64,000 nucleotides of DNA, from positions 31,228 through 95,227 of IMG/VR virus record IMGVR_UViG_3300037261_000044; one strand, 5' to 3'. The notes under the pieces were generated by a model. It had not been told where the DNA came from. It saw nothing but the letters and a program-made list of their open reading frames with translations, and made no database searches. The translations under genes were made by a program, and so were the position numbers. The stretch is from a virus. Below, in pieces: positions 61 through 62,400 of this stretch; within the stretch, counting starts at the first letter, position 1, and each line of letters opens with the position of its first letter.

Positions 61-103
61 AGCCCGGTCGCGCCGCCCGGAACGACAACGAAGGTCTGGC
101 ACC

Positions 104-15763: not shown

Positions 15764-15900
15764 CAGTCATTCCTCCCATTCCTCCCAATTCGGGCTATTC
15801 CTCCCATCTCTACTGTCTGTACTCTTCTTTATAAGTAGATGGGAGGAATGAGTTAAATTGGGAGGAATGACTGTTTTAGCTTCAATTTCATGGGAGGAAT
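15764..15900. repeat. iteron-like cluster, putative replication origin
   Basis: ATTCCTCCCA at 15769, 15778, 15797 and inverted copies at 15840, 15859, 15891 around an AT-rich core. Confidence 0.75.
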
Positions 15901-29358: not shown

Positions 29359-29545
29359 TGATACGGTCACGAAGCGGTGTGGCAGGGGTCACCCGATGCA
29401 ATTCGTTCGTGACTTTGGGGCTGGCGGGCAGGTGGTCTGCACGCCTCTTCTAGCGGATGGGGTTCCGCTGTGCTCAATCTGTCTAACCGATGAGCAGATG
29501 CTTGAGATGACTCATCTCGGCGTCGTCATCGAACTCGAAAACTAA
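29318..29545 (+). CDS. hypothetical Zn-binding protein
   Basis: CGRGH...CSIC. Confidence 0.55.
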   Translation: MALKMPGPVLLGLSDTVTKRCGRGHPMQFVRDFGAGGQVVCTPLLADGVPLCSICLTDEQMLEMTHLGVVIELEN

Positions 29546-29561
29546 GGGAAGGAGGTAAGCA

Positions 29562-29825
29562 ATGAGCAAGGTAGTCGATAAGGTCGTAGCGTTCGTATCG
29601 AGTCCCGTCGTTCACCGCGTGGCTGCGGCTCTCGCCGTAGCGTTCGTCGGAGTTCAGGGATTCGTCGCGGTTCACGGCGTGGACTTTGGCCTCGATGCGA
29701 ACACCGTGCAGACGGTCTCCGCAGTTCTCGGTGGTCTCGTCGTTGTCGCGCACGAGTTCGTCAGTCCGGTCATCGTGCCGTTCATCACGGCGCTGTTCAA
29801 GCCGACGCCGCCCGTAGCGAAGTAA
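29562..29825 (+). CDS. holin-like two-TM protein
   Basis: 87 aa with two hydrophobic helices; AAGGAGG RBS; no endolysin seen nearby. Confidence 0.5.
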   Translation: MSKVVDKVVAFVSSPVVHRVAAALAVAFVGVQGFVAVHGVDFGLDANTVQTVSAVLGGLVVVAHEFVSPVIVPFITALFKPTPPVAK

Positions 29826-29844
29826 CACCTTCGGTGCGACGACA

Positions 29845-29872
29845 AGAGACCCCGGCAATCACCGGGGTCTCT
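29845..29872. terminator. hairpin terminator between converging operons
   Basis: AGAGACCCCGG-6-CCGGGGTCTCT perfect stem. Confidence 0.75.
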
Positions 29873-29991
29873 CTGCGTCTAAGAAATGTTGAAAATATGG
29901 GGTTGTTTTTCAACGTCTACGGGTTGTTGCGCTTGCGGAGGTCACCTAGCCCGAACAAGAGTGTCACCAAGCGGCGAGCGACCTGTGGTCA

Positions 29992-30240
29992 TCAGCGCTT
30001 GCTCCCAGATTGCGGTAGTATATCAGAGTCGCTGTTCGGTCGCTCCCGCGTGTCGTCGAGCGGTATGAGTGTATACCCGTCACCGAGCAGGAGCGCGCCG
30101 GTCTGCATGGTGGGACGGTTGCGCACGGCGCTGTCGAAGAAGGCGAACGTGTCCACGCTCTCCATCACGCGCTCGAAGTTGTCCCTCGGTTCACTGAAGC
30201 CACCGCCGGACAGCGCCTTCAGGTCGTACAGGCTTCTCAT
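29992..30240 (-). CDS. hypothetical protein
   Basis: GGAGG RBS. Confidence 0.6.
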   Translation of the reverse strand: MRSLYDLKALSGGGFSEPRDNFERVMESVDTFAFFDSAVRNRPTMQTGALLLGDGYTLIPLDDTRERPNSDSDILPQSGSKR

Positions 30241-30446
30241 GTTACCTCCACCGGTCGCCCGCAGTTCAGGCAGGTCGCCGTCGCTCTCTGGGATATGTCG
30301 CGGGCCAGTTCGACAAAGCCACCGCATCGCCCGCAACTGATGCCGCGCTTCCTGATGGCCGCAAGGTCGTCACGTTCGTCCCTTGCGAACTCGTAGCCAC
30401 TGCTGGGGTCACGGGCAACGCCGCGTGTTGGGTAGCTAGTAGCCAT
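30237..30446 (-). CDS. Zn-ribbon protein
   Basis: CGRCG...CLNCG. Confidence 0.6.
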   Translation of the reverse strand: MATSYPTRGVARDPSSGYEFARDERDDLAAIRKRGISCGRCGGFVELARDISQRATATCLNCGRPVEVT

Positions 30447-30660
30447 GCTGGCCCCAGACCTTTCCATCCTTGCCGACGCGCACGCCATTGGCCGTAATAC
30501 GCGACAGGTCAGGCTTCGGCTCTAGCCGCTCCCGGCGCTCGCGCGACAGCCTCGCCTTGCGCAGTTCTTCTGCGACCTCGTTGGTGGCGTCGCAGCAGGC
30601 CCAGACACCGATGCTGCCAATGATGGAGAAGACGGCGATGATGATGATTGCTACTTCCAT
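30436..30660 (-). CDS. small membrane protein
   Basis: N-terminal TM; TGATG coupling. Confidence 0.6.
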   Translation of the reverse strand: MEVAIIIIAVFSIIGSIGVWACCDATNEVAEELRKARLSRERRERLEPKPDLSRITANGVRVGKDGKVWGQHGY

Positions 30661-30854
30661 CAGGCTGCCACCAAGTCGAGGATGTGCTTCGGTGAGCAGA
30701 AGTACACTTCGGTCTCGCCGTTGACACACAGGCGGTGCACGCCCCGGCGCAGGGGCAGGAGCACCAGCGAGTAGATGCCGTCTTCTGCATCCAACTCGAA
30801 GAAGAACGCCTTGCCCAGCGCGTCGATGAACTTGATGCCCTTGAGTGAAATCAT
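30660..30854 (-). CDS. hypothetical protein
   Basis: GGAGGG RBS. Confidence 0.6.
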   Translation of the reverse strand: MISLKGIKFIDALGKAFFFELDAEDGIYSLVLLPLRRGVHRLCVNGETEVYFCSPKHILDLVAA

Positions 30855-31138
30855 TTCTTTCCCTCCGATGGAATGAGCAGGGCGTGGTGCGCTGCGTACA
30901 GCGCCCAGCGCCGGGTGAATACCGCCTCGCACTCGTCCGAGCAGAAGCGGTTGCGGCCTGCGGGATTGTCTTTCTTGCCGGTGACGTTCTCGCCGTCCTT
31001 GGTGCAGGTGTTGCACAGGTCGAGCGCGACATCGTGCGGGACACTGGCGAAGACCTTGCCGACTGCGGCGAAGTGCTTAATCAGTTCCGACTCGCTGGCG
31101 TCTGCCCTTGGCAGCTTCAGTAGCTTGCGCTCTTTCAT
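30851..31138 (-). CDS. hypothetical protein with CxxC...FCSDEC
   Basis: Coupled ORF. Confidence 0.6.
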   Translation of the reverse strand: MKERKLLKLPRADASESELIKHFAAVGKVFASVPHDVALDLCNTCTKDGENVTGKKDNPAGRNRFCSDECEAVFTRRWALYAAHHALLIPSEGKK

Positions 31139-31980
31139 TCGGCCTTTCCTTTCAGCGCCTCTTGCAGCGCCTCGTTGGTCGCCATCTTCAGGGCGATGTC
31201 GTTGAGCCATTCGTCGGCCTCGATGAGGTCTTGGTTCTTGTACATCCACCGGGCCAGTTCTACGAGAATGTCGAATGCGTCTTCCTTGTCCTCCTGTCGC
31301 TTGTACCGTGCATCGGCAGCGGCGTTCTCGGCGCGGTACTTGGCCTCCCAGTCGTCCTTGCGTTTCTTGCGGGCCTCGGGCGTGTGGATGCTACACAGGA
31401 ATCCCCATACGAGATTCTTGCCGTTGAGTTCGTGGCGGTCGTACTGGTATTCGGCTTTCGCTCCCTTGTTGCAGTAGCCGAAGTCGGTGCTGATGCCAGC
31501 GGAGCGCCCCACCACGAAGTCGCAGAAGTGCTTGTCCGGCTCACGATAGCCGCAGGAGCTACACGCGCCGTACGTCGGATGATGTTCGGCGCATCGCTCG
31601 AAGCGATTCCACTCCACCTTCGGGCAGTTCTTGCAACGCGGACGTACCGGATTGATGATGTGCTTCGTCAACTCTCCGGTGCGCTCGCTGAGCACCGGGC
31701 AGTCGCCCTTGCGCAGCGGCGGCAGCACCCATTCGACAAGACCATCCCGGTCTGCGACTTTCTGGCACAGCTTGCAAACCTTGGCCCACGCCTCATTCCG
31801 AGGGTCGTGCTCTACCTTGCGGTTGCACTTGTAGCCCGCCGGAGCACCGCACAGCGACTCGCGCTTCCCGTCGTGGTACAGCAGATGCCCGGTCGCTGTG
31901 AAGGGCAGGTTGTATGCCGGGACGTTGCCGTACCCGGAGACGCCGTAGTGCTTCGGGTCGATGGTGCGCTTCTCGGTCAT
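31135..31980 (-). CDS. multi-Cys Zn-binding hypothetical protein
   Basis: Many CxxC / CxxH motifs; ATGA coupling. Confidence 0.7.
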   Translation of the reverse strand: MTEKRTIDPKHYGVSGYGNVPAYNLPFTATGHLLYHDGKRESLCGAPAGYKCNRKVEHDPRNEAWAKVCKLCQKVADRDGLVEWVLPPLRKGDCPVLSERTGELTKHIINPVRPRCKNCPKVEWNRFERCAEHHPTYGACSSCGYREPDKHFCDFVVGRSAGISTDFGYCNKGAKAEYQYDRHELNGKNLVWGFLCSIHTPEARKKRKDDWEAKYRAENAAADARYKRQEDKEDAFDILVELARWMYKNQDLIEADEWLNDIALKMATNEALQEALKGKAE

Positions 31981-32672
31981 GCGTGGCACGAACAGTGGCA
32001 CGGCGACCAGTCGTCGTCGCAGCATGTCCCTGTACCGCCGCAGGACATCGGCACAGCAGGCGGCTCGTCCTCGTATCCGGCAGCGTCGTCGTGCGCCCCC
32101 TTGCAGTTCCGCAGGTCGCCGTGCTGCGGGCAGATGCCCAGCTTGAGAAGCGACTCAGCGAACTTGGTGAGGTCGGCGATAATAGTCTGGTCGTCGTCAG
32201 TCAGGTACACGTGGTCGCGGTCGATGTAGTCTCCCGGTGTGTGAACAAACGGCGTCCGATTTATCACGACGTGCGTGTGATTGCCGGTCTTGCCACAGTC
32301 CTCACAGCGCCGGGAGTCGGCTTGCCAGACGGTGCGCACGTCGCGCTGGCGCTGAAGTTCCCGGCGGTTCAGCCGAATCTTCACCGATTCCTTTGGATGC
32401 GTGCCGAACGGGTCGATGTGGCCGGGGCCGTTGAACTCCTGACCTTCCGGTGGCAGGATGCGGATGGTGGTCTCACCCGGCGGGAGCACGTAGTCGCCGC
32501 CCTTCGACTCGTCCGGTCGCACGGGAGTCAGAACGGGGCACGGGCAGTCGGTGCAATCGCTCTGAACGTGGCAGTTCTCACAGGGGCCGCGCGACACGCG
32601 CCCGAGGTCGAACTTCATCTGGCACCACCCATTGACGGGCGGCTTGTGGCATGGTTGGCAGGTAAATCCCAT
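31977..32672 (-). CDS. Cys-rich hypothetical protein
   Basis: TGATG coupling; multiple CxxC. Confidence 0.7.
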   Translation of the reverse strand: MGFTCQPCHKPPVNGWCQMKFDLGRVSRGPCENCHVQSDCTDCPCPVLTPVRPDESKGGDYVLPPGETTIRILPPEGQEFNGPGHIDPFGTHPKESVKIRLNRRELQRQRDVRTVWQADSRRCEDCGKTGNHTHVVINRTPFVHTPGDYIDRDHVYLTDDDQTIIADLTKFAESLLKLGICPQHGDLRNCKGAHDDAAGYEDEPPAVPMSCGGTGTCCDDDWSPCHCSCHA

Positions 32673-33148
32673 CAGAATCCCTCGCTTTCAAAGAACTGGT
32701 CACGGGCAGGGTCTTGGTCTGCCCAGTGTGTCAGGTACCGGGCGCACGCCTCGGCGAAATCCTCTACCGTGTTGTCCAAGCTGAGCCGCCACGACGCCGG
32801 ACGCACGTTTGCTTCCACGACGGCGGCATACGCGCGGCCTTCGCTCGTGTCCAGCCAGTCCTGTAGCGTCAGGCCGCGCGGTTCGTGGCCGGTTTCTTCG
32901 ATGATGGTCTCTTGCTGGTGAGCGTGGCACAATTCGTGCGCTTCGACCTTGATGCTCTGGCCGGGTGCCACGACAATCTCCCGCGTCGGTGCGTAGTAGA
33001 AGTCGTGCACCTGTCCATCGGCCCATGGGCAGAACCCTTGGCTTGTGCACCCGGTGTCAGTGACGTACAGGTGCACGCCGGACGGCACCGACATGCACCC
33101 GGTGAACAGGATGCCAATCATCGCCAGTGGTACTATCAGTCGCTTCAT
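32672..33148 (-). CDS. lipoprotein with HExxH zincin motif
   Basis: Signal peptide with lipobox LFTGC; AHELCH; EDFAE; GAGG RBS. Confidence 0.75.
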   Translation of the reverse strand: MKRLIVPLAMIGILFTGCMSVPSGVHLYVTDTGCTSQGFCPWADGQVHDFYYAPTREIVVAPGQSIKVEAHELCHAHQQETIIEETGHEPRGLTLQDWLDTSEGRAYAAVVEANVRPASWRLSLDNTVEDFAEACARYLTHWADQDPARDQFFESEGF

Positions 33149-33167
33149 GTTGATTCGTCCTCTCGAC

Positions 33168-33278
33168 TCATGCGGTCGTCGCTGTGCTGCGTGTCGTGAC
33201 GCCCGACCGTCACTGGTGCCCTGACGCCTACCGTATGGCGCTCTCACCGAAACAAACAGTACAGCGACCGCCGCATGA
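33168..33278 (-). ncRNA. long hairpin A with branched loop
   Basis: TCATGCGG..GTCGCTGT arms enclose two inner stems; ends just upstream of an RBS. Confidence 0.6.
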
Positions 33279-33506
33279 ACGCTGCGGTCAGCGGGGCTTA
33301 ACCCCCACCCAGTCATTAGTTTCGCCTCCCTTCGTGGGGTGCGGCCCCCGAAGTCCGCATCTAGTCACGTGTCACCACGCCCATTCGCCCCTCATGGATT
33401 TACCTTAGGATGAGCGGCCCGACTGTCAGGCCGAGCACGAACAGTACCGTCAGCACAAGGTAGACCCTGTGCGGCGGCTTCTGTCGTGGCGTCCACTCCG
33501 GCCTAG

Positions 33507-33911
33507 TCATCGGCCAATACTCGGGTCGCCGCCCCGGATGGCGCGCCAGCATGCGCAGGTGCAGAAGATGTCGCCTGCATTTGGGTCGCACGATTCGTTT
33601 CCCGGCGGCAGTGCAAGGCTGCGCTCGGAGAGCGGGTGCTTGCACGCGGGGCAGGTCGTCGGCCTGAGCCAGACGACACGGCAGCGCGGGCACTTGTCGA
33701 TGGACAGCGCCTTCGTGTCGATGGTCGCGTTCATGAGCATCGCCACCGGGAAGTACCCGGCGTCGAGGAACATGCTCCGTATGGCCTTGAGTACCAGTTC
33801 CGCGTTGTGCGGGCAGGCGACTACGGTGCCGTCCTCACTGTGCGGCGCGCCGCCTGCGGACAGGAGCGCCGCCTGCTTCGCCCATTCCTTTTCGAGGGTC
33901 GTCTTAGCCAT
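33507..33911 (-). CDS. Cys-rich hypothetical protein
   Basis: CPRC...CPAC. Confidence 0.65.
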   Translation of the reverse strand: MAKTTLEKEWAKQAALLSAGGAPHSEDGTVVACPHNAELVLKAIRSMFLDAGYFPVAMLMNATIDTKALSIDKCPRCRVVWLRPTTCPACKHPLSERSLALPPGNESCDPNAGDIFCTCACWRAIRGGDPSIGR

Positions 33912-34194
33912 CGTGCCCGTCCCTTTCGTCGGCGATGTTGATGTTGGTGAGGATGACCTCGCCCATGCGGCGCGCGAACAGGTGCTCCTGTTTCACGCAT
34001 TGCGTGCCGCCGAGTTCACGCACGAGTTTGATGCCGCGCTCGGCATTGCTCCGCATGAAGAACTCGGTAGTCGATTCGTGCGGGCCTTGCAAGAGTTCCC
34101 GCGCCTGTGATGCGGTCGCTGATGCGACGACATCGAGCAACTTCTGAAGGTGCTTCGCGTCGCCTCGACTGAGGGTTATCCTGACTGCTGCCAT
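33904..34194 (-). CDS. hypothetical protein
   Basis: AGGAG RBS. Confidence 0.65.
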   Translation of the reverse strand: MAAVRITLSRGDAKHLQKLLDVVASATASQARELLQGPHESTTEFFMRSNAERGIKLVRELGGTQCVKQEHLFARRMGEVILTNINIADERDGHDG

Positions 34195-34234
34195 TGCACA
34201 CTCTCCTGTGACTAACTGGGTTGGGTGTCATGTT

Positions 34235-34346
34235 CACCCATCGCAGAGCATGAGGTCTTCGGTACCTTCGGTCGTTATCCGCCTGCTGACACTGCCTCGC
34301 GCCCTGCGATGGGTGGGCGTACGCTGATGACAACGCACGCCCGCCC
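34235..34346 (-). ncRNA. long hairpin B plus an overlapping alternative hairpin
   Basis: 21-bp stem with G-U wobbles on the minus strand only; the upstream 16-bp hairpin shares CACCC. Confidence 0.65.
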
Positions 34347-34352
34347 GGTTCG

Positions 34353-34808
34353 TTACACCAACATCAACAGGTAGCGTAACCGCTTGTCGATAGCGGCGCG
34401 CACTTCCGGCGACACCGGCACGCCTTCGCGCGCGACTTCGTGGAGAATGACTCCCCGGCTAGTGGCGACCACGATGCCCACTTCATCGCACATGTCGATG
34501 AACTGTCGCGCCAGACTAGCGGCGCTACTCTGCGCCGTTGCTCGGCAGATGTGTGCCGGAGGGCGCAGGTACGTGCCATCGCGCCGCTTCAGACTGTACA
34601 GCATCTTGCCCTCTCGGTCGAGCAGCGACCAGTTGATGCGGTCGTACTCGCCGTGGTTGCTCAAGTTCGCCTCGATGCTCAGGCTCTTGGATGTGCGGTA
34701 ACTCTTAGCCAGCGCGCGCTTGACAGCGACATCCATGCTGGCCGCGATGATGTCTTCCTGATGCGTGCCGTTGTTCGCGGTCACGGTGACGTGGTACAAC
34801 TTGCTCAT
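34353..34808 (-). CDS. hypothetical protein
   Basis: GGAGG RBS. Confidence 0.7.
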   Translation of the reverse strand: MSKLYHVTVTANNGTHQEDIIAASMDVAVKRALAKSYRTSKSLSIEANLSNHGEYDRINWSLLDREGKMLYSLKRRDGTYLRPPAHICRATAQSSAASLARQFIDMCDEVGIVVATSRGVILHEVAREGVPVSPEVRAAIDKRLRYLLMLV

Positions 34809-34993
34809 TTCACTTCGCCTCCGAGTGTGATGGTGATGACGTTGAAGGACGTGTCACCGAGTCGCCCATGTCGTTGCTTGTGCTGCCGTAGCGCGTCACG
34901 CACGGCGGCAGGCCGCGACCCGGCGATGGTCTTGTAGCTGGCGACCAAGTAGTAGTCGGTGAACGTCACCGTGTAGCTGTATCGCTTGCTCAT
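34805..34993 (-). CDS. hypothetical protein
   Basis: GAGGG RBS. Confidence 0.6.
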   Translation of the reverse strand: MSKRYSYTVTFTDYYLVASYKTIAGSRPAAVRDALRQHKQRHGRLGDTSFNVITITLGGEVK

Positions 34994-35015
34994 GGTTCCC
35001 TCTTTCTCGGGTGAA

Positions 35016-35185
35016 CGCCCGTCAGGTGGCTTCAGGCCATGGAATCAGGTTCTCGCTATCTTCCGTGCGCCCCTGTCTCTGCCTGCATCCAGCCACCTGA
35101 CGGACGGGGCAACCTCCCTGCTGCCCTTCGTGTACGTCCTCGTCCGTTTGCACGGTCACCTGCCCTTTGTACGACAGGCGTTGCC
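35016..35185 (-). ncRNA. long hairpin C and adjacent structured domain
   Basis: 16-bp stem 35016-35031/35091-35106; GGCAAC/GTTGCC stem 35108-35185. Confidence 0.6.
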
Positions 35186-35197
35186 GGTGCTCGCTCG

Positions 35198-36272
35198 TTA
35201 CGCGGCCTTGCTGCCGCCGACCCCGGACAGTTCCAGAATCTTGTTCGTGGCCTGCGCGTTGAACTCCGCGCCAGCGCCGAGCAACTGCTTCTCGAACCGG
35301 GCCTCGCCCTCGTCGCGGCCCTTCGCTACCCGAATCTTGTCGCCGTGCGTGGTGAACCGGGTCACCGCGCTGAGCAACTGCCAGTACGAGAACGACTTCT
35401 CGCCGCCGCCGGTCGCGGTGTACTGCGGGAGCAGAAGCACTTCCTCTTTCAGCGCCTCGGTGAACGCCAGCACCCGCTCGTTGCGGTTCTGGATGGCGCG
35501 CTTGCCCTGCTTGGTGATGTCCACTTCCGGGAAGATGGTGTTCATGAACTCGTCGTAGGCGTCGCGCGCCACCTTCACGTCGTCCAGCGCGTCGGCCTTC
35601 ACCTTGAAGTCGCCGAACACACTCGCCGCCTGCGCCATCATCTTGCGCAGTTCTTGCAGCTTCTCCTGCATGTTGCCCGTGTGGCGGATGTTGACGGACA
35701 GTTCCGCGTACGCCTCGCCGAGTGCGGCGTTGAGCGTGTTGTTGCACACGACATCGACCGTCGTGAGCAGGAACTTCCCGCTGCCGGTGCCGTCGTGGCT
35801 GTTCATGCCGAGCAGGAACGGGATGATAGGGTGCTTCTGGTTGCCGACCGTGAAGCCGCTGTCCACCAGCGACATCAGCATCCACACGCGCCGACCGTCG
35901 AGCAGGCTGCCCGCTGTCTGCATCTTCGCGACGTTCAGCCCCTCGCTCGATACGAGTAGGTCGAACACGCTCGCCAGTTCCTCGTTGTGGAGCGACTGGT
36001 AGATGCCGCCGACATAGCCGAGCCGCTTGTTGTCCTTGCCGCGCATGTGCTCGAAGATGTCCGGCGCAACCTCGAAGCCGCCGGGTACGATGATACCGTT
36101 CGCGTCGGGTAGGTCTGGGCGTAGGCTGTAGAGTGGCCGCTTCTCAAGCGCCCACCCGGCGAGGCCCGCTTCCTCCAACGCCTCAGGCACGCTCATCAGG
36201 TGGTCTACCCGCGTGCCTGCGTTGTGCCATGCGCCGCCGTAGTATAGCGGCTGTCTCAATCTCGTGAGCCAT
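35198..36272 (-). CDS. DUF932 (LGT_TIGR03299-like) protein with an apparent +1 frameshift near 36245
   Basis: MAHEIET start with RBS is out of frame with YYGGAWHNAG; TAGSLLDGRRVW, NSHDG, VVCNNTL, IRHT motifs. Confidence 0.85.
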
Positions 36273-36338
36273 GGGTTCGTTTGTGTCCTTTCCAAAGACG
36301 ATGCTGGTCTGCTGGTTGGCGATAGCTGCGCGTATTGT

Positions 36339-36530
36339 TTACTGCCGGTTAACCTCCGCAATCTCATCTTCCAAGTCACCCAGTTGGGTGTCGATGTCGT
36401 CAAGCACCGTCCAGTCGATGGACTCGTTGACCTTGAGGCGCGCATCTGCGGCGATGGTCTGCTGAAGCAGGCTCGTCGTCGTGATGATGCTGGCAAGATA
36501 GTTCTCGATGGTCGTCCTCAGCTTAGCCAT
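36339..36530 (-). CDS. small acidic helical protein
   Basis: GGGAG RBS. Confidence 0.6.
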   Translation of the reverse strand: MAKLRTTIENYLASIITTTSLLQQTIAADARLKVNESIDWTVLDDIDTQLGDLEDEIAEVNRQ

Positions 36531-36933
36531 TGCGTGCTCCCTCGTACTCCCGGCTGCGCTCGCTGGTCAGTCGGTGCTGGTCGTCGTCGTTGTTCCACCA
36601 ACCGGTGACAATCTCGCCGGTCGCTGCGTCGATAACGATGGATAACTCCTGCTTGCTGGCGACGGTGCGCCCCGGCAGCTTGATGTAGCCCGAACCCCGG
36701 ACGAGCCAGCGTAGCACAGCGTTGTCACGCGCCGCCACCTGAATCTCGATGAGGTCGGCTTGCTCTGCCCATGCGCGCTCTACAAGCAACGGCAGATGCT
36801 TCGCGACGCGCCGGTAGTTGTAGTGCGGCGTGCCGGTCAGAACGTCCGGCAGACTGCGCTCGTAGCGCCTGCGGTCGAACCAGACAGGGAAGCCGAGGTC
36901 GCGGTGGTAGAGTCGAAGCGGTTCGTTGCTCAT
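36523..36933 (-). CDS. hypothetical phage protein
   Basis: LYHRDLGFP...WLVR...IVTGWWNNDDDQH. Confidence 0.7.
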   Translation of the reverse strand: MSNEPLRLYHRDLGFPVWFDRRRYERSLPDVLTGTPHYNYRRVAKHLPLLVERAWAEQADLIEIQVAARDNAVLRWLVRGSGYIKLPGRTVASKQELSIVIDAATGEIVTGWWNNDDDQHRLTSERSREYEGARNG

Positions 36934-37166
36934 CGCTTGCACCTTTCATGCCACTCTTTCTCAAGATACGGGCATTCGCCGTGGTCGCCCTTGATGCTGC
37001 TGAACTCGCACTCAGCGCGTTCGAACACTTCGTCAATCTCAGCCGTGGACAAGTCCATCGACTCGCCAAGCTGTGCGTATTGCTCTGGTGTTAAGCCAAC
37101 GGCCAGAACCTCAGCGAGCAAGCGCGGGAATTGTACGCTGTTGTCGTTCCAGATTCCGTTGCTCAT
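36930..37166 (-). CDS. hypothetical phage protein
   Basis: WNDNSVQFPRLLAE...ESMDL; AGGAG RBS. Confidence 0.7.
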   Translation of the reverse strand: MSNGIWNDNSVQFPRLLAEVLAVGLTPEQYAQLGESMDLSTAEIDEVFERAECEFSSIKGDHGECPYLEKEWHERCKR

Positions 37167-37444
37167 GATAGACTCCTGTTCGTGTCCTCGCGAATCTCCC
37201 GAAGCATGGCGAGTGTCCGACTGGCGCATGTCACCGCCACCGCTTCGCCTGCGATGTTGATGCTGTTCGGTGCGGGAATGACTTCGACCTGAACTTCGGA
37301 ACCGCACCTGCGGCAGTGTGCGACGACAACCGCATCACGCAGAGCCGTCAGGCCATGGCCGGTGAATCGAAACGGCGTCAGGTCGTGGCCGCGAAACGCT
37401 GCGGACTTGCGCGCCTGTCGCTTGAGTGTTTGAAGTGTCGGCAT
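37163..37444 (-). CDS. hypothetical protein
   Basis: GGAGG RBS; FRGH...CRRCG. Confidence 0.65.
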   Translation of the reverse strand: MPTLQTLKRQARKSAAFRGHDLTPFRFTGHGLTALRDAVVVAHCRRCGSEVQVEVIPAPNSINIAGEAVAVTCASRTLAMLREIREDTNRSLS

Positions 37445-37779
37445 CACGCGCCCCTCCTGTAGTGCACGAACGTACGCCCGTGGCATACGCACTGGCACCC
37501 GTCACGGATACCGGCATCGTCGCCCTTGAGCCGCCGTGCGCGGCATAGGCAGGCGTTCCACTCGTGCGGCGCGCCACCGCCTACTGGCTCGATGCTCCAA
37601 CCCTTGGCCTTCGCCCGCTCCACCGCCGCGCCAATTTTGCGTCGTTCCACGACTGGCGGCTGGTCTTGCTCGTAGTCGCCGCCTGATGCTTCGCTCGCAC
37701 TCAGGCCGCGCGGTGTGGCCGGTGTGTGCTCTCCCGTCAGGAACTCTCGCACCTGCTCGGGCGTTAAGGTGGTACTCAT
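37444..37779 (-). CDS. hypothetical protein
   Basis: AGGAG RBS; CQCVCH. Confidence 0.65.
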   Translation of the reverse strand: MSTTLTPEQVREFLTGEHTPATPRGLSASEASGGDYEQDQPPVVERRKIGAAVERAKAKGWSIEPVGGGAPHEWNACLCRARRLKGDDAGIRDGCQCVCHGRTFVHYRRGA

Positions 37780-37848
37780 GGCTTCTCTCCTGTGCTGCTT
37801 GCAACTGTGCAAGCGTAGCATCGGCACGCCGACGCCACGTCTGAACGG

Positions 37849-38418
37849 TTACCGGCGCTCTCCCTCAGGTCGAGGGAAGCGGAAGCACACCGACTCGATG
37901 AACTTGCGCGGGAGCGCATACTCACGCCCGTCCTTCTCGCTGCGGTAGACGAGCGTGCGCTTCTGTAGGCGCGTGATGGTCAGGTTGGCACCGTACGTGG
38001 TGGTGACAACATCGCCCGGAGCAATGACGGCGCGCGATGCGCTGCCCTTGCTGTGGAACTCGCGCACTTCCTCGCGCCACTTGCGGGCGTAGTCACTATC
38101 AGGACACGGCACCATGTCGAGCAGGGACAGCGGGCAGTCAACCTCGCACGGCCCCATGGTTTCGTCCATCGGCTTGTACACCCATTCGCTCGCGCGTTCC
38201 TTGCCGGGTGCGTTGCACTCGCGATACCTGCTGATGAGTGACAGTTCAATCGCCACCGGCACGCCGTTCTCCCGGCGGATGTTGTAGTGGTGATTGAAGT
38301 TGACGAGTCGGCAATCGGTGCGAGTCACGGCGACGCCGCCGAACTCTGCCCGCGTCATCAGTTCGCGGTCTATCTGCGCATGTGTCCCGGACTCGCCGGG
38401 GATACCGTAGCTTCCCAT
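37849..38418 (-). CDS. DUF6927-like protein
   Basis: WVYKPMDETMGP...CPLSLL...ARKWR pattern recalled from this family. Confidence 0.65.
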   Translation of the reverse strand: MGSYGIPGESGTHAQIDRELMTRAEFGGVAVTRTDCRLVNFNHHYNIRRENGVPVAIELSLISRYRECNAPGKERASEWVYKPMDETMGPCEVDCPLSLLDMVPCPDSDYARKWREEVREFHSKGSASRAVIAPGDVVTTTYGANLTITRLQKRTLVYRSEKDGREYALPRKFIESVCFRFPRPEGERR

Positions 38419-38420
38419 GG

Positions 38421-38633
38421 TTACTTCACCTTCCTGACGCGCGGCGCGCCGCTGTTGCGTGTACTCTTGCTCGCGGTGCCGGATGCCCGCGTGCTGCTGT
38501 GACTCGATGGCGACGTGCGATGTACGCCCGTCGTGGTGCTGGTGTGATGCATGTGCGACTTCGCGATATGCCCACCGCCGAACGCCACGCCCGCCACAAT
38601 TGCCAGCTTCGCTACGTGGTGATGGAATGCCAT
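38421..38633 (-). CDS. small His/Ser-rich protein with a hydrophobic segment
   Basis: GAGG RBS; tight packing. Confidence 0.55.
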   Translation of the reverse strand: MAFHHHVAKLAIVAGVAFGGGHIAKSHMHHTSTTTGVHRTSPSSHSSTRASGTASKSTRNSGAPRVRKVK

Positions 38634-38635
38634 GG

Positions 38636-38926
38636 TTACTCGTCCTCCCCTAACCCGAGGTCTACGCCTGAGTCCTCGTAGTCGCTCTGGTCTAGGAACT
38701 GCTCAAGGTGCAGGCCATCGACAATGGCCGATGCTGTGAGCGTGCGCCCGTTCGGCATCAGTATCTCGTTGCCGCCGTGTCCACAGTCAACATCCTCGAT
38801 GGCAGTCTCGGCAACGCCCATGAAGTCCAGCGACACGGGCGGGAAGTGGTTCGACTGAAGGTGCCACTTCAGCGCCACGCTTCGGTCGGCAATCTCAAGC
38901 ATGCCGGTCAGTGCTGTGCTACCCAT
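38636..38926 (-). CDS. hypothetical protein
   Basis: LKWHLQSNHFPPV...IVDGLHLEQF. Confidence 0.7.
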   Translation of the reverse strand: MGSTALTGMLEIADRSVALKWHLQSNHFPPVSLDFMGVAETAIEDVDCGHGGNEILMPNGRTLTASAIVDGLHLEQFLDQSDYEDSGVDLGLGEDE

Positions 38927-38930
38927 GATG

Positions 38931-39077
38931 TCACGCCCTTTCATACCCGTCGAACCAACCCTTACCGGTTGTGTTCGGGTCGTTGCACCACGCTTGCGCC
39001 TGTTCGAGCGTCAAGCCGGTGCGTATAATCTGCTTCCGTCCGCGCATGCGATAGCGCACGATGTTGTACAGCGTCAT
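38931..39077 (-). CDS. 48-aa phage protein missed by the ORF track
   Basis: MTLYNIVRY...TGLTLEQAQAWCNDPNT...WFDGYERA; ATGA-coupled. Confidence 0.7.
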   Translation of the reverse strand: MTLYNIVRYRMRGRKQIIRTGLTLEQAQAWCNDPNTTGKGWFDGYERA

Positions 39078-39364
39078 GCCGTCACCTTCAGCGCCGGGTC
39101 GAATGGCTCTGCCTGTTCGCTCAGGTTGCGCGCTCTCTGAAGCGCGACCTCGATGTAGCGGTGGAACTTCTGGCCGTCGAACTTCTCCGAGTCTGCCGTG
39201 AAGCGCCCGACGAACGCGCCGCGCACCAGATTGATGCCGAGCGTGACGCTGCGGCTCTCGGCTTCGGTGCGGAGTACGCCGGTCGTGACTGCCGGGTGCT
39301 GATACGCTTCGACCAGCGCATCGGCAACCGCGATGTAGTGTTTCTGCGTGAACGTGCGTGCCAT
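39074..39364 (-). CDS. hypothetical protein
   Basis: FTQKHYIAVADAL...FTADSEKFD..KF; AGGAG RBS. Confidence 0.7.
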   Translation of the reverse strand: MARTFTQKHYIAVADALVEAYQHPAVTTGVLRTEAESRSVTLGINLVRGAFVGRFTADSEKFDGQKFHRYIEVALQRARNLSEQAEPFDPALKVTA

Positions 39365-39445
39365 CGGATGATTCTCCTGACTAAGTTCATGTGCCGTCAT
39401 GTCAGGCACAAGCGCACGCCCTACGCTAGGGCGCGCGTCTGTGTC

Positions 39446-39694
39446 TCACGGTGTGCCGCACCGGGTGGTACAGTCGAAGCGTACGTGCACCGGGCAGAGC
39501 GTGCGCGCTTCGACATCGAAGAACACGCGCGCCGGGTGCGTGTGGCGCTCGTAGAACATGTGCGTATGTTTCACCACGCCATCGCCGAACGGGTGCTCGT
39601 GCTCAAGGTGGTACACGGCACACACCGCGTGCGCTCCGGCGCTGCGGTCATGGCAGTGGCAGAGCGGGCAAGCGTTTAGGTCTATCTTCATCAC
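39446..39694 (-). CDS. His/Cys-rich small protein
   Basis: GGAG RBS; many His. Confidence 0.55.
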   Translation of the reverse strand: MMKIDLNACPLCHCHDRSAGAHAVCAVYHLEHEHPFGDGVVKHTHMFYERHTHPARVFFDVEARTLCPVHVRFDCTTRCGTP

Positions 39695-39875
39695 TCGACT
39701 CCGATGCGGATTGGGAACCCGTCGCCACGGATTCGTTGCTGGTACGGATAGGCGGGCAAGGTGACAGTTAGGCGCGTGTCGTCTTTGATTGTCACGAACG
39801 TGACGGCCTCGCCGTTAGCCTGCGTTAGCGCCTTGCTGAGCCATTCGAATGTCTCGTTGGTGACAGGGACTCGCA

Positions 39876-40430
39876 TCACTCCCACCTTTCGCCGTTGAAG
39901 AACGCCACCACGGCGCGCTTCGCTACCCGCCTGAATGCGAGGTAGCCGAAGAACACGTCGCTATCTTCCGGCCAATACTCCGACGAGTAGCCGACTCCGC
40001 GATTGTTGTCCTCGCTCTTGCTCAGGATGAACGGTGCCGCCAGCTTGCGATAGTCGCCGTCGATGTCGCACGCGGCCTCTGCCGATTCGATAGCTTCGTC
40101 GTACTCAAGTTCCGACATCACTTCGTCATCGACTACCGGGTAGTCTTCGAGGTCGTTGAGAATCTGTTTCACGATGTCGATTGCATCCTGCCGTGCCGGG
40201 TCGATGAGAATCCACCCGCCATACACGCCGGACAACGGGCCTCTGAAGTCCTCGACCTCGAACGAATCCTCAGGCAACGCCCGTTGAATCGCAATGAAGT
40301 TCGACCGGCGCACGATGTCGGACACGTTCGCCGATGTGTATGCCACCAACCAGTCGTTACGCTCGCCGAAGTAGGCGAAGTCGCGGGTGGTGCGTTCGTA
40401 TTCGGCCATGCTGCGGAGCGTCGTGCTCAT
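39876..40430 (-). CDS. hypothetical phage protein
   Basis: RSNF...LEDYPVVDDEVMSELE; GGAGG RBS. Confidence 0.75.
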   Translation of the reverse strand: MSTTLRSMAEYERTTRDFAYFGERNDWLVAYTSANVSDIVRRSNFIAIQRALPEDSFEVEDFRGPLSGVYGGWILIDPARQDAIDIVKQILNDLEDYPVVDDEVMSELEYDEAIESAEAACDIDGDYRKLAAPFILSKSEDNNRGVGYSSEYWPEDSDVFFGYLAFRRVAKRAVVAFFNGERWE

Positions 40431-40594
40431 AACGTCGCCCTCCACTGTGCTAACCGCGACAGCTTCTCAAAGTAGTGTCGGCACGCGGCGAGTGCTTCTG
40501 GTGTCGCATGCGTGCGGCAGATAGGGCAGTAGCCCTCAGAAGATAGCCACGAACTGCCGCAAGACGGACATTCGACCGTGTTCGAATTGCTCAT
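40427..40594 (-). CDS. Zn-ribbon protein
   Basis: CPSCG...CPIC; GGAGG RBS. Confidence 0.6.
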   Translation of the reverse strand: MSNSNTVECPSCGSSWLSSEGYCPICRTHATPEALAACRHYFEKLSRLAQWRATL

Positions 40595-40878
40595 GATGCG
40601 CCCTCCTGTTGACGCCGGACTGCGGCCTGTTGCGTCGCCGATGAGGGTACGCAACCGATGCGCGCCGGGAGGTCGTTGTACTTCTCGCGGCTGATGCGGA
40701 TGCACACTGAGCACCGCCGGTCGTAGCCGTTGAAGATTGCCCATTGCGCGTACCGCTCCGGGCCTGCGTGATAGAGCACGGTTGGCGCTTGGTTCGCCGC
40801 AACCGTGATGCCGCACTCCGTCCGGCGCGTAGTGTCGCCGTCGTGCGGGTTCACCGGGATATGCGTGTTGCCTGCCAT
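40591..40878 (-). CDS. first gene of the leftward early operon, hypothetical
   Basis: GGAGG RBS; TECG...CSVC. Confidence 0.7.
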   Translation of the reverse strand: MAGNTHIPVNPHDGDTTRRTECGITVAANQAPTVLYHAGPERYAQWAIFNGYDRRCSVCIRISREKYNDLPARIGCVPSSATQQAAVRRQQEGAS

Positions 40879-40906
40879 TGGTTGATACCTCCGACTAGAT
40901 TCTGTT

Positions 40907-41001
40907 CGCCCATGTCAGCACTCGCCCTCAACCTCAGGTCGCCGCTTGTCCCGCCGGGACTGGACTAGGTGTGCTTACTTGCGCGAGTGCTGACATGGGC
41001 G
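40907..41001 (-). ncRNA. long hairpin D, perfect 19-bp stem with a 57-nt loop
   Basis: CGCCCATGTCAGCACTCGC / GCGAGTGCTGACATGGGCG. Confidence 0.7.
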
Positions 41002-41009
41002 GGTGAACG

Positions 41010-41620
41010 TCAACGAACGCCTAACGCGCCGTGGCTTTATTGTCCGTGAATCGTGCCGGGTCATATCCGCGAAGGGTTGCCCGTGCCAACACAAACGAAG
41101 CGCCTAACCGGCGCATAGCTACCATCGGAACGCGCCATGCATCCGTCGTTGCTCACCTACTCATGTCCGCCTAGTTACACTCCCGCTTAGCGAATCCTCC
41201 TGAATCCTACAGCGCCGCAACGGGTCGTATAGAGTCGCTGAGCTACGCACAACTAGGTACACGTAGCAGAGGAATCCCCCGCCGGTCGTTTCGCGCTTCA
41301 AGGGTGTGTGTGCTTCGAAGTTCGCTCTACAAGCGCCGGGGTTCGTGGGCTACGGTGCGCGGGGTACCTGTTATCACCGATGCCGGAAGCATCGCAGCGG
41401 GTCAGGTGCGCATCAGGTTTCGACCGGCGCTTAGGTGTCGCTTAGGTTTCGCCATGAGGCTATCGCCACGGGGGAGCAGGCACGCATCCTAGCGCTTCAC
41501 CCTGCTAATCACACTCCCCACCCCGCTCGCGTCCCGGTTAGAGCCGAGTCTGCGGATTGGTTTCGCGCCCCGATTGCCAGCGTTCGGGGGGATTCTCATC
41601 TGGCGTCACGTGTTACAACA
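41010..41620 (-). ncRNA. putative large structured non-coding RNA / leader
   Basis: No credible ORF; nested helices; four CGAAAC motifs on the minus strand. Confidence 0.55.
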
Positions 41621-41744
41621 CAATCATCGGGCGTACGTTTCAAGCCTGAAGGGGTCAGGGCAGTTTCTTTCAAAGATTGTTGCTCGACAACGAGCCTTCG
41701 TATCTGGGAGAGGCCAAAACACGCGCAACAGGTAGCACAATCGA

Positions 41745-42095
41745 CCCGGCGCGCCACCCTCACGCCCAATCCCTACGCACCCGGCGCGCGCCACCCCGCC
41801 CGCCTGTCAACCTAACGACAGGCGACGCCCGCAACCATCCGGCCCATGCATCCGAAACACTAGCCAGCACCGCCACCAAACGACCACTCCCGCCCATGCA
41901 CCCCGCGTTACCCTGACAATCACTCCCGCCGGTACACTCACGACCGCACCCAACACACCACCCCGCCACGCCACCGCTAACGCATACTCGCGACGTTCAC
42001 GCCCTCATCACGCCACCCCTACGCACCCTCACGCCACCCTCACGCCACCATGCGCCCGGTACCCACCCATGCACCGCACCTCTGCCACCGTACGC
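41745..42095. repeat. C/A-skewed degenerate CACGCCACCCT repeats
   Basis: Strong strand asymmetry; repeated CGCCACC units. Confidence 0.65.
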
Positions 42096-42584
42096 GCGGC
42101 GACGGAAGCCAGCGACGGAAGCGCCGACAGGCGCGCCCGGAGTCTGAGCTAGCCACCGCGTTGGGAGTCGCGCCCGCAGCGCCAATCCGCCACGACTCGC
42201 GACGCACGACTCCCAGCGGCCATGATGACGCGCGTTCTATAGGCGCGACGGCCTCGAACTACCGCTTCCGACTCAAAGCGGCAGTAGGTGAAGCTGCGAC
42301 CGGCATACGTTGCGCTTCGAAGCTGAGCGCGGCAGGTCGGCAGCCCGTGCCACCAGCCGCCACCTACCGACAGCCCGGTAGGTGGCAGAGGTTCGGCGGT
42401 GCGCCCGCGCCCGCCCTGCCAACTTTGTATCATGCCACGGCGCTAACGCCTCCCAAAATGGCAGCATATACCGGCTCAACACTCAGACCGGGTTGACCTT
42501 AGCGCCCTGAGTTCTCGCCCTCGACTCGGGATGGGGGACATCCGGGAGCCGCAAAATCCCCGGAAAATTGCGCGTACCCCTCGG

Positions 42585-42671
42585 CGTCGCGACCCACGTT
42601 ACCCTGCCCGTCGCGACCGCGTTACCTTAGCGTCGCGACCGGGGTCGTGCGTCGTGGTACCCGTCGCGACC
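42585..42671. repeat. four CGTCGCGACC repeats
   Basis: At 42585, 42609, 42631, 42662, each preceded by TACC. Confidence 0.85.
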
Positions 42672-42685
42672 GCTGTAGCTTCGGG

Positions 42686-42715
42686 TTGCGGTACTCAGTG
42701 CGGGCACGGTATGAT
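42686..42715 (+). promoter_or_regulatory. sigmaA-type promoter
   Basis: TTGCGG-18-TATGAT upstream of the rightward operon. Confidence 0.6.
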
Positions 42716-42765
42716 GGGGGTACTGGCCCGGTGTTGTTGAAACCCGGTACAAAGAAAGGAACCCC

Positions 42766-43344
42766 ATGAGTACCAGAGAAGACGCCCCGCCCGTGAGCGG
42801 AACCCCCGTTGTCGTGTCGATAGAAGGAACCGTCACCGCCTCAGTTGGCGGTAGAACCCTGAAGACCCCCTTCGCTGTCTCAGCCTCGCGCATGGCCCTC
42901 GACCAAGACACGGCACGTGCCGTGTGGCTGGCTATCAGCGAGGCGTGGCGGCGATTCTACGCGGACTTCCCGTCCACGGATTCTGAGCTACCCCCGTCGT
43001 TCGAGTTCGCCTCCCCCAAGAAGGAGCCGTACCTGCCGGACTGCCTGCACAAGTTCGATGAGCATGGCGCTCACCCGACTTTCTGCGTGCGGTGCAACGA
43101 GGACTGCAACCCCACCACCACCGGGAAAGACCGGTACCCATTCACCCGTGGCCTTGCACGAGTCATCAGTGTGTCCGACCTTGCTGATGGTGACGTGCTC
43201 GTGAAGACCGAAGGTGTCGGCGCGCGCCAGCACGTGAGCACCCACTTCAGGGTGTCAGTCGCCTCAGCACCTCACGTCGGTGACTACGTGGAGGTGCTGG
43301 TCATGCCCCACCACGACGAGTCGCTGGTCGTCGTAAGCGTCTAA
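42766..43344 (+). CDS. hypothetical protein
   Basis: AAGGA RBS. Confidence 0.7.
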   Translation: MSTREDAPPVSGTPVVVSIEGTVTASVGGRTLKTPFAVSASRMALDQDTARAVWLAISEAWRRFYADFPSTDSELPPSFEFASPKKEPYLPDCLHKFDEHGAHPTFCVRCNEDCNPTTTGKDRYPFTRGLARVISVSDLADGDVLVKTEGVGARQHVSTHFRVSVASAPHVGDYVEVLVMPHHDESLVVVSV

Positions 43345-59451: not shown

Positions 59452-62400
59452 TTGTCTTCCAACGCCTTTCAAGACTTGCTCGATGGTAAGCCCGCTGGCG
59501 TACCCGGAGTTGACTATCAGTCACTCTTGGCACAGGCTACTGGTGCTGACCCTAACGCAACTGACCCCAATGCCGCCGACCCCAATGCCATGTCGGTCAA
59601 TCCGGGTAACCCGAGCGATGACCCATTCGCTGACCTGCTCTCTGGTAAGCAGGTAGACTCCGGCAACGCGGCCTTCAACAACAACCTTGCCGCCATCAAG
59701 AAGGCGCAGGACGACTACGCTGCACAGCAACAGGCTGCGGACACCGCCGCCAATGCGCGTGCCAATAAGGATGCACCGCTCTGGGCACAGGGTCTCCAAC
59801 TCATCGGCGCGGCGATGAAGTACACCTCGGGTAACACGTACATCCGCAAGTACGTCCCCGGTGTCGCCACGGCTGAAGATGTCATCCCCGGCGTCAAGAC
59901 TCTCGCGGATGTCGCCTCGAACCCCTTGACCTACCTGACGGTGGGCGCGGCGACTCCTGAAGAGGCTGGCCTTGAGGTTGCTCTTGATACTGGGCTGCCT
60001 ATGCTCGGGAAGGTCGGCCTTCGGGCCAGCGCTCCCATGCTTGAGCGCGGGATTGGTGGGGCAATCGGCGGGGCAATCGGCCAGCAGGCTGGTGTTGAGT
60101 ACCAAAAGACAGGTCTCCCCGGTGGTTCTCTGGCCCCCGCTCTTGGCGGTCTCATCGGTGGCGTCAAGGGATACGGTGCAGCCAACTCTGTGTTGGAAGG
60201 TGGCCTCGGCAATCTCCCCGGCGTCGGTAACCTCCTTCCTGAAGACTTGAAGTCGGTCGGCCAGAATGCGGGTATCGCTAGCGCGGCGGCTGAGAAGGCT
60301 GCGGCAGCGGCAACAGCGCAAGCGCAGACCACAGGTGAGTTGACACCCGGCATCACGCTGTACACACGCGGTGATGGAGAGTTCACGACCGTTAAACCGA
60401 AGGCCATTCAGGACACATCGCAACTGACGCCACAGGATTTTGCTGACCCGGTGAAGACTCTTGAGGATGCAGCGATTCACCCTCAGCCGGAAGGGTATGT
60501 CTACGCCACCGTCAACGCAGAAAATGCCAAACTGATTTCCGATACCACGGTACTAGACAAGCAAGGGGCTGTGTTCTCTCCTACTCTCAGCGGGGTAACG
60601 CTCGACCCGGCTGACACGGCTATTGTACGTGTCCCAGAGGCCAGAACAAAGATTGACCCAAAGACTGGTCAAGCCGTTGCAACGCGCAACATTAACACCG
60701 CCGATGTGCATGTGCTCACGGCTGATGGCAGTTGGAAGCCGCTAGGTGGTTCGCTGAGCGACGCGACGAAGGGCGAGTGGACACCGGTACCGGTCACATC
60801 GCCGGAAGAGGCAGCGAAGTACACCTTCGATGGCAAGACGTGGCACTATGACCAGACGCCGGAAGAGATAGCCGCCGCCAAGGCCACGCAGACCGGGCAA
60901 TCCCGAAATGCTTCTAACGTGCTCACGCCGCAAGAAGGCACACCGCCTGTCCCTGAACCGGAGCCTGTGCCCGGACAGCAGCCGATGCCGTTGGCCGGAG
61001 ACATGGCCGCGACGCGCGAACCGCTGGCCCCCACCCCGGAAAATTCGGCGGCTTCCACGACGGAGCCAAAACCCGAAGAGCAGGGCTACCAGCCTAAGCT
61101 GCTCGGCACGGACAAGTTCGCGCCGCCGCAGGTGACGCCACCCGCGCCGGGTGAGGTCAACCCCACAGCCTTCCACCAAGAGGTTGTGAGCAGCAGCGTG
61201 CAGAATGGCGGTGGCACCTTCGATGTCGCCAACGGTGAACCTATCATCCCGAAGGCATTCGCTGAGCCGGGTGCGACGGGCAATATCAGCACGAAGACTT
61301 CAGTCGGCGTCATGCCGGAGCGGTCGGTCATCATCCCACAGGACAAGTTCACTCCCGAGGCCGTGCAGGCGTGGGAGCGCGCGAATGCTGATGTCCTGAA
61401 CGATGGCGTGCACCACATGGGCACGTGGGTGCATGATGGTGACGTGCATCTCGATGTGGTGGAACTCACCACTCCGAAGAAGGCCGTCGCGCTGGGACTT
61501 GAGAACACGCAGCACTCCGTCTTCAACATGCGCACGGGCGCGGACATCCCGGTACCCGGCGTTGACGATGCGGCGGTGCAGGCGAAGTTCGCTGAGGCTC
61601 GGGCGCGCGGCGACGCACTCGTAGGTACTCCGGCGACGCCCGCAGGCCCGCAGGCCATGACACTCACGCACTACGGCCCCACGGCGCACCCGGTCATCGA
61701 CCCGAACTTCCAAGGCACAGGCGTCCCGAGCGAGGAACTTGCTCGTAACGGAGTCAACCCGAACGCCGATGCACGATACGCCTCCTACTACGAAGAGGGA
61801 CAGCAGCCGGAGAAGTTCTTCACGGACAAGACCGGTGTGCCGAACCCGAGTCTTGCGAAGCACACGGTCACCGGCAACTTCAACATTCTCGACCTTACGT
61901 CGCCGGAGGGCCGCGACTTCATCGCGAAGGCCAACATCCCGGCGGGGCCGGTCGGCCACGAACTCGACAACGCGCTGCAACAGGCTGGGTACGACGGGTA
62001 CAAGAACGGCAGCATGGGCACGGTGCGCATGTTCGGTCAGCGCCCGGTGTCTGCCATCAACGACATCCCGGTGGAGAAGAACATCACCACTGAGAACAGC
62101 ACGATGCACATTGCGCCGGACGGCAGCGCTGTGGACGAAGCGTTCGCTGGCAAGGAGACCCCGACGCCGACGCCGGAGCCTGCGCCACAGTCGCGCGTGC
62201 AGCGCACCGAATTGTTCCCGACTGACAAGGGGCCGATGACTCCTGAGCCTGTACCGGGTGAGGCCCGTCAGGTGATGAAGCGCGGACAACTCGTGACCAA
62301 GGGAGCCAGCCCTGTTGCGCCGCAGCAACTCGGCGCGCCGCAACTCGGAGCCGCGACACCGGAAGAGATAAACACGTTCACTGACCGACCGGTGACCGAC

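Follow-up and report, generated by a model that had tools for sequence, protein, structure and literature searches.

The DNA examined here is a window of 64,000 nucleotides, bases 31228-95227 of the single 95,227-bp virus record IMGVR_UViG_3300037261_000044, from an uncultured phage of peat metagenomes. The subject is a family of four long hairpins, H1 to H4, which stand between the genes of a leftward operon in this window; positions in and around the operon are given in window coordinates. The genes mapped as open reading frames (ORFs) within 29992-40914 all lie on the minus strand, with stops and starts that overlap or abut, and are presumably co-transcribed as a single leftward polycistronic message. 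A non-coding leader of about 1.7 kb stands ahead of the operon. The initial annotation had called these genes early, a label drawn from gene size and position only. All four of the hairpins it proposed were found where it had placed them. In the order of transcription they are:

H4, 40907..41001, minus strand: 19 perfect bp, 20/21 when extended; interior of 53-57 nt; at the end of the leader.
H3, 35016..35106, minus strand: 16-nt arms with 15 Watson-Crick pairs and one G-U pair in the sense RNA; 59-nt interior; in the 204-nt gap after the DUF932 gene.
H2, 34235..34315, minus strand: 21-nt arms, 86% Watson-Crick; 39-nt loop; in the 158-nt gap between the genes for a 151-aa and a 96-aa protein.
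H1, 33168..33278, with a foot reaching 33164..33282, minus strand: interrupted helix of about 27 bp, arms 16/18; in the 251-nt gap before a lipoprotein gene.

The gaps holding H3, H2 and H1 are the three largest in the operon. Each hairpin is followed by a gene with its own Shine-Dalgarno (SD) sequence:

40591..40878, minus strand: first gene of the operon, 95 aa, no known family; SD GGAGG 14 nt past H4.
34805..34993, minus strand: gene after H3, 62 aa; SD GAGGGA 13 nt past the stem.
33904..34194, minus strand: gene after H2, 96 aa; SD AGGAG 27 nt past the stem.
32672..33148, minus strand: gene after H1, a 158-aa predicted lipoprotein; SD 4 nt past the core stem.

Measured from the 3' end of the stem, the SD thus begins 4-27 nt downstream, roughly the 5-25 nt originally claimed for the distance to the ribosome binding site (RBS), and the start codon follows at 19-40 nt. 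The upstream stop codon is farther from the hairpins, at 37 to ~120 nt. In minimum-energy folds the stems leave the SD uncovered, except for the outermost pairs of H1. H4 with its flanks occupies 40904-41008, where lower GTT/AAC pairs and a 4-nt bulge on the RNA 5' side extend the stem, and its interior includes a 5-bp GC hairpin. In H3 the interior opens with an internal loop and then adds 5 further bp. In the minus-sense RNA, H2 has 20 of its 21 positions paired, two of them as G-U, with one A-C mismatch. The helix of H1 is built of blocks of 2+9, 8, 4 and 4 bp and closes a branched interior with two inner hairpins. The initial annotation described the loops as unrelated to each other, which was borne out by our comparison, since no loop motif is shared above chance.

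These hairpins are real and lie beyond chance. Under three arm/match criteria, the 95-kb genome held 3-4 inverted-repeat loci with spacers of 30-120 nt, compared with 0.23-0.33 in 40 dinucleotide-shuffled genomes, and the 20 pairs of H4 were reached by none of 60 shuffles. When the four hairpins were folded as sense RNA, their z-scores relative to dinucleotide shuffles ranged from -3.4 to -4.9. A genome-wide census without gaps, at a threshold of at least 13 Watson-Crick pairs, returned H2, H3 and H4, along with a cluster of repeats (15764-15873), two inverted repeats of lesser strength, three short-loop hairpins and nothing else. The sole other long-spacer inverted repeat beyond the operon and the repeat cluster lies at 10819-10919 (arms 16/18, 65-nt spacer), inside a minus-strand coding region. 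Scanning the genome for minimum free energy in 120-nt segments and counting loose helices gave no discrimination at its GC content of 61%.

H2, H3 and H4 share a foot. The stem-base consensus originally reported for three of the hairpins (5' arm CRYCCRT, 3' arm AYGGGYG) was recovered in H2, H3 and H4, save that the 3' arm of H3 has an A at position 5. The foot extends outward into an 8-mer, GTTCACCC, present five times in the genome on both strands, and three of the five copies touch the feet of H2, H3 and H4. With the H4 copy taken as the source, two of the four others lie within a few bases of a hairpin end, for which we estimate a chance of ~10^-5 or less. On the sense RNA, the 5' flanks before CRYCC read GUUCACC, GUUGCCC (H3) and GUACGCC, with a 4-nt bulge relative to the 3' side; clean GUU/AAC lower pairs are formed in H4 only. 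Outside the shared foot the three stem sequences differ, yet each is still self-complementary, which argues for intramolecular pairing rather than for protein half-sites. Degenerate copies of the foot in coding sequence (37472, 38176 and 38522) have no pairing partner. The 5' arm of H2 also has a 15-nt exact match (window 34300-34314; genome 4204-4218; blastn-short E 0.007) within a giant ORF of the genome, which is probably due to chance.

We tentatively interpret the hairpins as cis-acting intercistronic punctuation of the mRNA, cut by a host enzyme of the RNase III type, and place this explanation a little short of an even chance. A role as RNA is suggested by the placement of the hairpins relative to the RBS, by the one-directional gene array and by the implausibility of cruciform extrusion, as spacers of 39-59 bp make extrusion physically implausible. 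The same long spacers argue against cruciform promoters of the N4 hairpin type, which were considered and rejected. In E. coli, RNase III substrates typically span two helical turns, a length that coaxially stacked short helices can supply; where there is an internal loop only one strand is cut, and hairpins retained at the 3' ends of the products shield them from exonucleases (PMC1540722). The helices in the operon fit this two-turn rule, with 20-21 bp in H2, H3 (16+5) and H4 and about 27 interrupted bp in H1. The operon also contains a set of shorter hairpins:

34311..34346, minus strand: short GC-rich hairpin of 12+3 bp with a 4-nt loop, z -5.7, starting 7 nt past the upstream stop; its last bases overlap the 5' foot of H2 and no U-tract follows it.
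35107..35126, minus strand: short 7-bp hairpin that borders directly on the H3 5' foot, with the conserved flank GUUGCCC as its 3' arm.
35150..35190, minus strand: further hairpin just past the DUF932 stop codon, upstream of H3.
37797..37838, minus strand: two adjacent short hairpins of 10 bp and 7 bp, in the 69-nt gap (37780-37848) before a gene for a 111-aa protein.
39401..39449, minus strand: short-loop intercistronic hairpin with an 11-bp core, in a gap (39365-39445) without a long hairpin.

The short hairpins ahead of H2 and H3 could cap the 3' end of the upstream product or stack on the long stem, and the hairpin at 39401-39449 stands for another and simpler kind of punctuation within the operon. 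Punctuation is the best explanation of these features because the geometry fits the rules of RNase III, short hairpins abut H2 and H3, and the SD is left free. In such a scheme a double-strand-specific endonuclease, most simply host RNase III, would cut in the long stem and divide the operon into the leader, genes 1-13, a piece of two genes, a piece of three genes and the lipoprotein block. At the end of each upstream piece a short GC hairpin or half-stem would give protection, and each downstream piece would carry a short leader and a free SD at its start; the variable interiors would most simply be spacers or by-products. No RNase III gene was found in the phage genome, so the host enzyme would be used. 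We infer the cleavage, the enzyme and any effect on stability or translation. An RNase III-type array had been put forward in the initial annotation, and this core of the proposal accords with the placement in the leader and gaps, with the lack of a terminator tail or promoter and with the short hairpins before H2 and H3; the cargo and G-U arguments added to it fared less well, as described below.

Hairpins between gene blocks might also suggest factor-independent terminators or attenuators that lack U-tracts, and the genome is GC-rich. Terminator hairpins without U-tracts have been proposed in high-GC bacteria, although the proposal is contested. No U-tract or T-run follows any of the four stems on either strand, and a terminator scan did not call any of the four hairpins as a whole but listed just a weak inner site of 6 bp in the 5' arm of H1. 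Loops of 39-59 nt are also atypical of terminators, and H4 stands in the leader, right before the first gene of the operon. A related proposal is that the hairpins bound invertible promoter switches: formally, an inverton is recognised by inverted repeats around a short segment ahead of a gene, and the genome has a recombinase gene. Against this, no promoter-like hexamers were found in the hairpin interiors, no inverted joints were seen in the four sequencing runs compared below, and recombinase-mediated inversion needs longer spacers than the 39-59 bp seen here. Between them, terminators and inversion switches make a highly improbable account of the hairpins. A search of 29500-43000 for sigma-70-like promoters gave 0 sites on either strand, the consensus used being that of sigma-70, which may not be the host's.

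Several observations weigh against punctuation by RNase III. The interiors of 39-59 nt exceed those of the classic sites of T7 or SP82. The shared foot goes unexplained, because RNase III needs no conserved sequence, and the position of GTTCACCC varies, lying on the 5' side of H4 and the 3' side of H3, with its complement on the 3' side of H2. This inconsistent orientation hints that the elements are also scars of duplication or recombination. H1 has neither the shared foot motif nor the flanks and is therefore best treated as a weaker, separate hairpin, possibly unrelated to the other three. The whole-element fold energies have no sense-strand bias: they are -61.4 kcal/mol sense and -59.9 antisense for H1, -43.4 and -49.2 for H2, -48.3 and -46.3 for H3, and -54.7 and -56.4 for H4, so that H2 and H4 fold better as antisense. 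This lack of bias leaves room for a role as DNA or single-stranded DNA. The initial annotation had read mismatches that become G-U pairs only on the minus strand as support for selection at the RNA level. Three such mismatches do occur (two in H2 and one in H3), but another in H2 is a G-U pair only on the plus strand, and three versus one is not significant; the argument from G-U pairs thus falls away.

Comparative data add to the points on this side. The phage sequence is identical across several runs of two studies, and a run of a third study has only small pieces of it; no RNA run is among those listed with the phage. Four DNA runs compared at the contig level, where rare forms may be hidden, had the same sequence with no variants and no joints, and hence offer no population covariation. 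Self-complementarity of differing stems is seen across the paralogues H2, H3 and H4 only, and no relative carrying these elements was found in the collections searched. Megablast of 33000-41200 against GenBank phages gave no match, and tblastn with the DUF932 protein and the phage DNA polymerase (PolA) gave matches that were all below 30% identity. No related locus was found in IMG/VR viral contigs with the DUF932 protein, the 151-aa protein family, PolA or a PolA alignment as query, in JGI metagenome contigs and GTDB genomes with the 151-aa protein family, or in GTDB genomes with a PolA homologue. Homologues of the 151-aa protein (42-61% identity) and of PolA (69-79%) came mostly from Logan, ENA and NCBI, on contigs of at most 22 kb. 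Scanning for the foot motif together with the hairpin geometry gave 1 match in IMG/VR and 51 in JGI metagenomes, all of them attributable to chance, with stem extensions of at most 4 bp and no fold signal.

Some of these findings suit an explanation at the level of DNA, in which the hairpins are junctions for the exchange of gene blocks, akin to the promoter early stem-loops (PeSLs) of T4-type phages and more loosely to integron attC sites, or remnants of a small, palindromic mobile element. Block boundaries marked by the shared feet (GTTCACCC/CRYCCRT), with unrelated interiors between them, fit this picture, as does folding without sense-strand bias, and the differing orientation of the motif at three sites suits recombination scars better than one oriented RNA signal. 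PeSLs have been described as regulatory cassettes that are mobile and bring about modular shuffling (PMC2839356). A tyrosine recombinase, the only one, is encoded in the genome, but this protein of 187 aa has a catalytic domain only and its gene lies ~33 kb from the hairpins. There are three or four sites rather than one per gene, none with the promoter-like element of a PeSL, and the polarity of the core, GTT on the 5' side and AAC on the 3' side, is opposite to that of attC. Neither target-site duplications nor further copies were found in the genome; blastn-short of the elements against it gave chance-level matches only, without significant similarity, complementarity or mobile-element copies. 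The motif-plus-hairpin pattern had no real member in IMG/VR or the JGI metagenomes, and no rearranged joints appeared in the four runs, whose contigs may hide rare forms. Taken together, we regard a DNA-level explanation as quite unlikely.

The hairpins could instead act as RNA without being cut, as 5' insulators, stabilisers or modulators of translation initiation near selected RBSs. Their consistent closeness to the next SD (4-27 nt), and not to the upstream stop, is what such elements would require, and alternative folds are hinted at in two places: the GTTCACCC flank of H3 can pair with the SD region GGGAAC, and the foot of H2 can re-pair with flanking CCC/GGG runs. Decay-slowing 5' stem-loops offer one parallel. 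The extended start-associated sequences (ESAS) offer another, being imperfect 17-bp inverted repeats with a variable spacer just upstream of start-associated sequences (PMC3203893). The spacers of ESAS are mostly 4-13 bp, against 39-59 nt here, and from hairpin to start codon there is no conserved start-associated motif, the four intervening segments sharing only SD-like purine runs. The SD is not sequestered in the minimum-energy folds, and a perfect duplex of 19-21 bp such as that of H4 would be hard to shield from bacterial RNase III. An uncut role of this kind is thus unlikely, if not remarkably so.

The initial annotation went further and saw in the loops a functional cargo of small RNAs. 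On this account, cutting of the stems would free stem-clamped small RNAs of ~60-90 nt, each with its own function, for example as an anti-defence decoy. If a perfect duplex such as H4 were cleaved twice, its interior would be expected to come free as a discrete RNA, going by the biochemistry of RNase III (PMC1540722), and the interiors are partly structured, with two inner hairpins in H1 and the 5-bp GC hairpin in H4. The loops themselves gave no such indication. Rfam 15, with its ribozymes, small RNAs and tRNA-like elements, had no match at gathering thresholds across the whole window, and at E <= 5 returned only generic microRNA-precursor and other chance matches of 20-24 bits, against cut-offs of 40-120. 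No tRNA or tmRNA genes and no tRNA-like element were found, the loops have no significant complementarity or similarity to the remaining phage genome and no counterpart elsewhere, and no motif is common to them above chance. Nothing found supports a function of the loops, and we therefore rate the cargo proposal as very unlikely.

A further variant would account for the shared foot. H2, H3 and H4 might be sites of a processing system private to the phage, in which the asymmetric foot (GUWSNCC-CRYCC, on the RNA 5' side, with its 4-nt bulge) is recognised by a phage endoribonuclease or RNA-binding protein encoded among the unannotated small genes, and cutting would free small RNAs, clamped by their stems, that have separate roles, for example as decoys for the host's defences. 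If true, this system would use a phage-encoded protein at the shared foot, but we consider it very doubtful.

The genes next to the hairpins gave no function in Pfam, PHROG, NCBIfam or Atlas searches. The predicted 158-aa lipoprotein has a signal peptide that ends in the lipobox LFTGC and an HExxH motif (HELCH), with no family match. The true start codon is the ATG at 33148, from which a textbook signal peptide of the lipoprotein type runs; an ORF that apparently crosses H1 was rejected as an arginine-rich artefact. A 36-aa hydrophobic ORF at 33400-33510 precedes the lipoprotein gene. At the other end of the operon, an apparent 160-nt gap at 40431-40590 proved not to be a gap. It is filled by a 54-aa ORF (40431-40594, minus strand) with two CxxC pairs resembling a zinc ribbon, which has an ATGA overlap with the stop of the first gene. 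For the DUF932 gene (35198-36496, minus strand), the longest frame starts at a TTG without an SD, and an ATG with a good SD at 36530 opens another frame of 63 aa (36339-36530, minus strand) that overlaps the DUF932 N-terminus; the start could be mis-called or there could be a frameshift. Upstream of H4, the minus strand is strongly G-rich at 41760-42090 and has GGTGGCGTGAGG-like repeats. At the far end of the 1.7-kb non-coding region, beside a divergent rightward operon, GGTCGCGAC occurs four times with a spacing of 22-31 nt (42586-42671, minus strand), and these copies are candidate operator repeats.

The virus record is classed in IMG/VR as having direct terminal repeats, and the CheckV estimate is that it is complete. 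Few of the other products of the genome could be named, since most had no match in Pfam, PHROGs or NCBIfam. Those recognised include:

UDG-fused family A DNA polymerase (PolA): replication protein of the phage genome.
DnaB-like helicase and SF2 helicase: replication proteins of the phage genome.
RecA-like protein: replication protein of the phage genome.

The frame at window 59452-64000 runs in frame over the circular junction to genome 3-5504, giving one ORF of ~3,351 aa. DUF7178, near residue 1400, is the sole family match of this giant ORF, and no RNA polymerase match was obtained from a Pfam scan of both halves or a PDB sequence search of the C-terminal half. A search of the genome for T7-type RNA polymerase families, part of a check for a virion RNA polymerase such as N4-type hairpin promoters would suggest, gave no match, but neither did its controls. 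The tyrosine recombinase gene (genome 30811-31374, minus strand) spans the left edge of the window (~window 1-147), and its product matches PF00589 with an E of 1.7e-24 and is without the N-terminal core-binding domain.

Among known systems, integron attC sites resemble the hairpins in that both are imperfect palindromes that fold, have conserved feet with an unpaired bulge close by and vary in their central part, and are set between promoterless genes shortly before the next start. Here the feet are GTTC...GAAC, the reverse of RYYYAAC...GTTRRRY; the cassettes do not each have a site, and no integrase of the IntI type is encoded nearby. We rejected an attC identity on the grounds of the reversed polarity, the lack of a site per cassette and a recombinase that is distant and catalytic-domain-only. 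The PeSLs of T4-type phages join an early promoter to a terminator-like stem-loop (PMC4122927). Like the hairpins, they are repeated intergenic stem-loops that border small blocks of accessory genes, and they are proposed to be recombination points as well (PMC2839356, PMC4122927); unlike PeSLs, the hairpins have no promoter-like sequence and no U-tract. In Cluster K mycobacteriophages, ESAS are ~17-bp imperfect inverted repeats of unknown function with a phage-specific consensus, which lie immediately before the translation start of some of the genes (PMC3203893). The hairpins share with them imperfect inverted repeats, a variable spacer and a position upstream of a subset of starts. They differ from ESAS in that these accompany a conserved 13-bp start-associated sequence and have many sites per genome, compared with 3-4 sites and spacers of 39-59 nt in the peat phage.

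The closest known systems are the early RNase III sites of T7 (R0.3, R0.5, R1, R1.1 and R1.3), the lambda N-leader site and the stems of rRNA precursors. Hairpins between the cistrons of small-gene phage operons are a familiar feature, and T7 sites are ~50-60 nt long, with a small apical loop and an internal loop that limits cutting to one strand. The hairpins described here have instead near-perfect stems around 39-59 nt of unrelated sequence, and they share no sequence similarity with the T7 sites. If cleavage is true, a soil or peat phage would join the short list of those with mapped mRNA punctuation, and long near-perfect stems could serve as portable operon insulators. The array is a private example of a familiar type of signal, real and ordinary in concept. 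In line with the T7 sites, it consists of leader and intercistronic hairpins in a phage operon presumably transcribed by the host polymerase, about two helical turns long, with several sites that share sequence, a free RBS downstream and a 3' hairpin that could remain on the upstream product. With rRNA precursors it shares a long stem that closes a large interior, the arrangement through which those precursors are cut.

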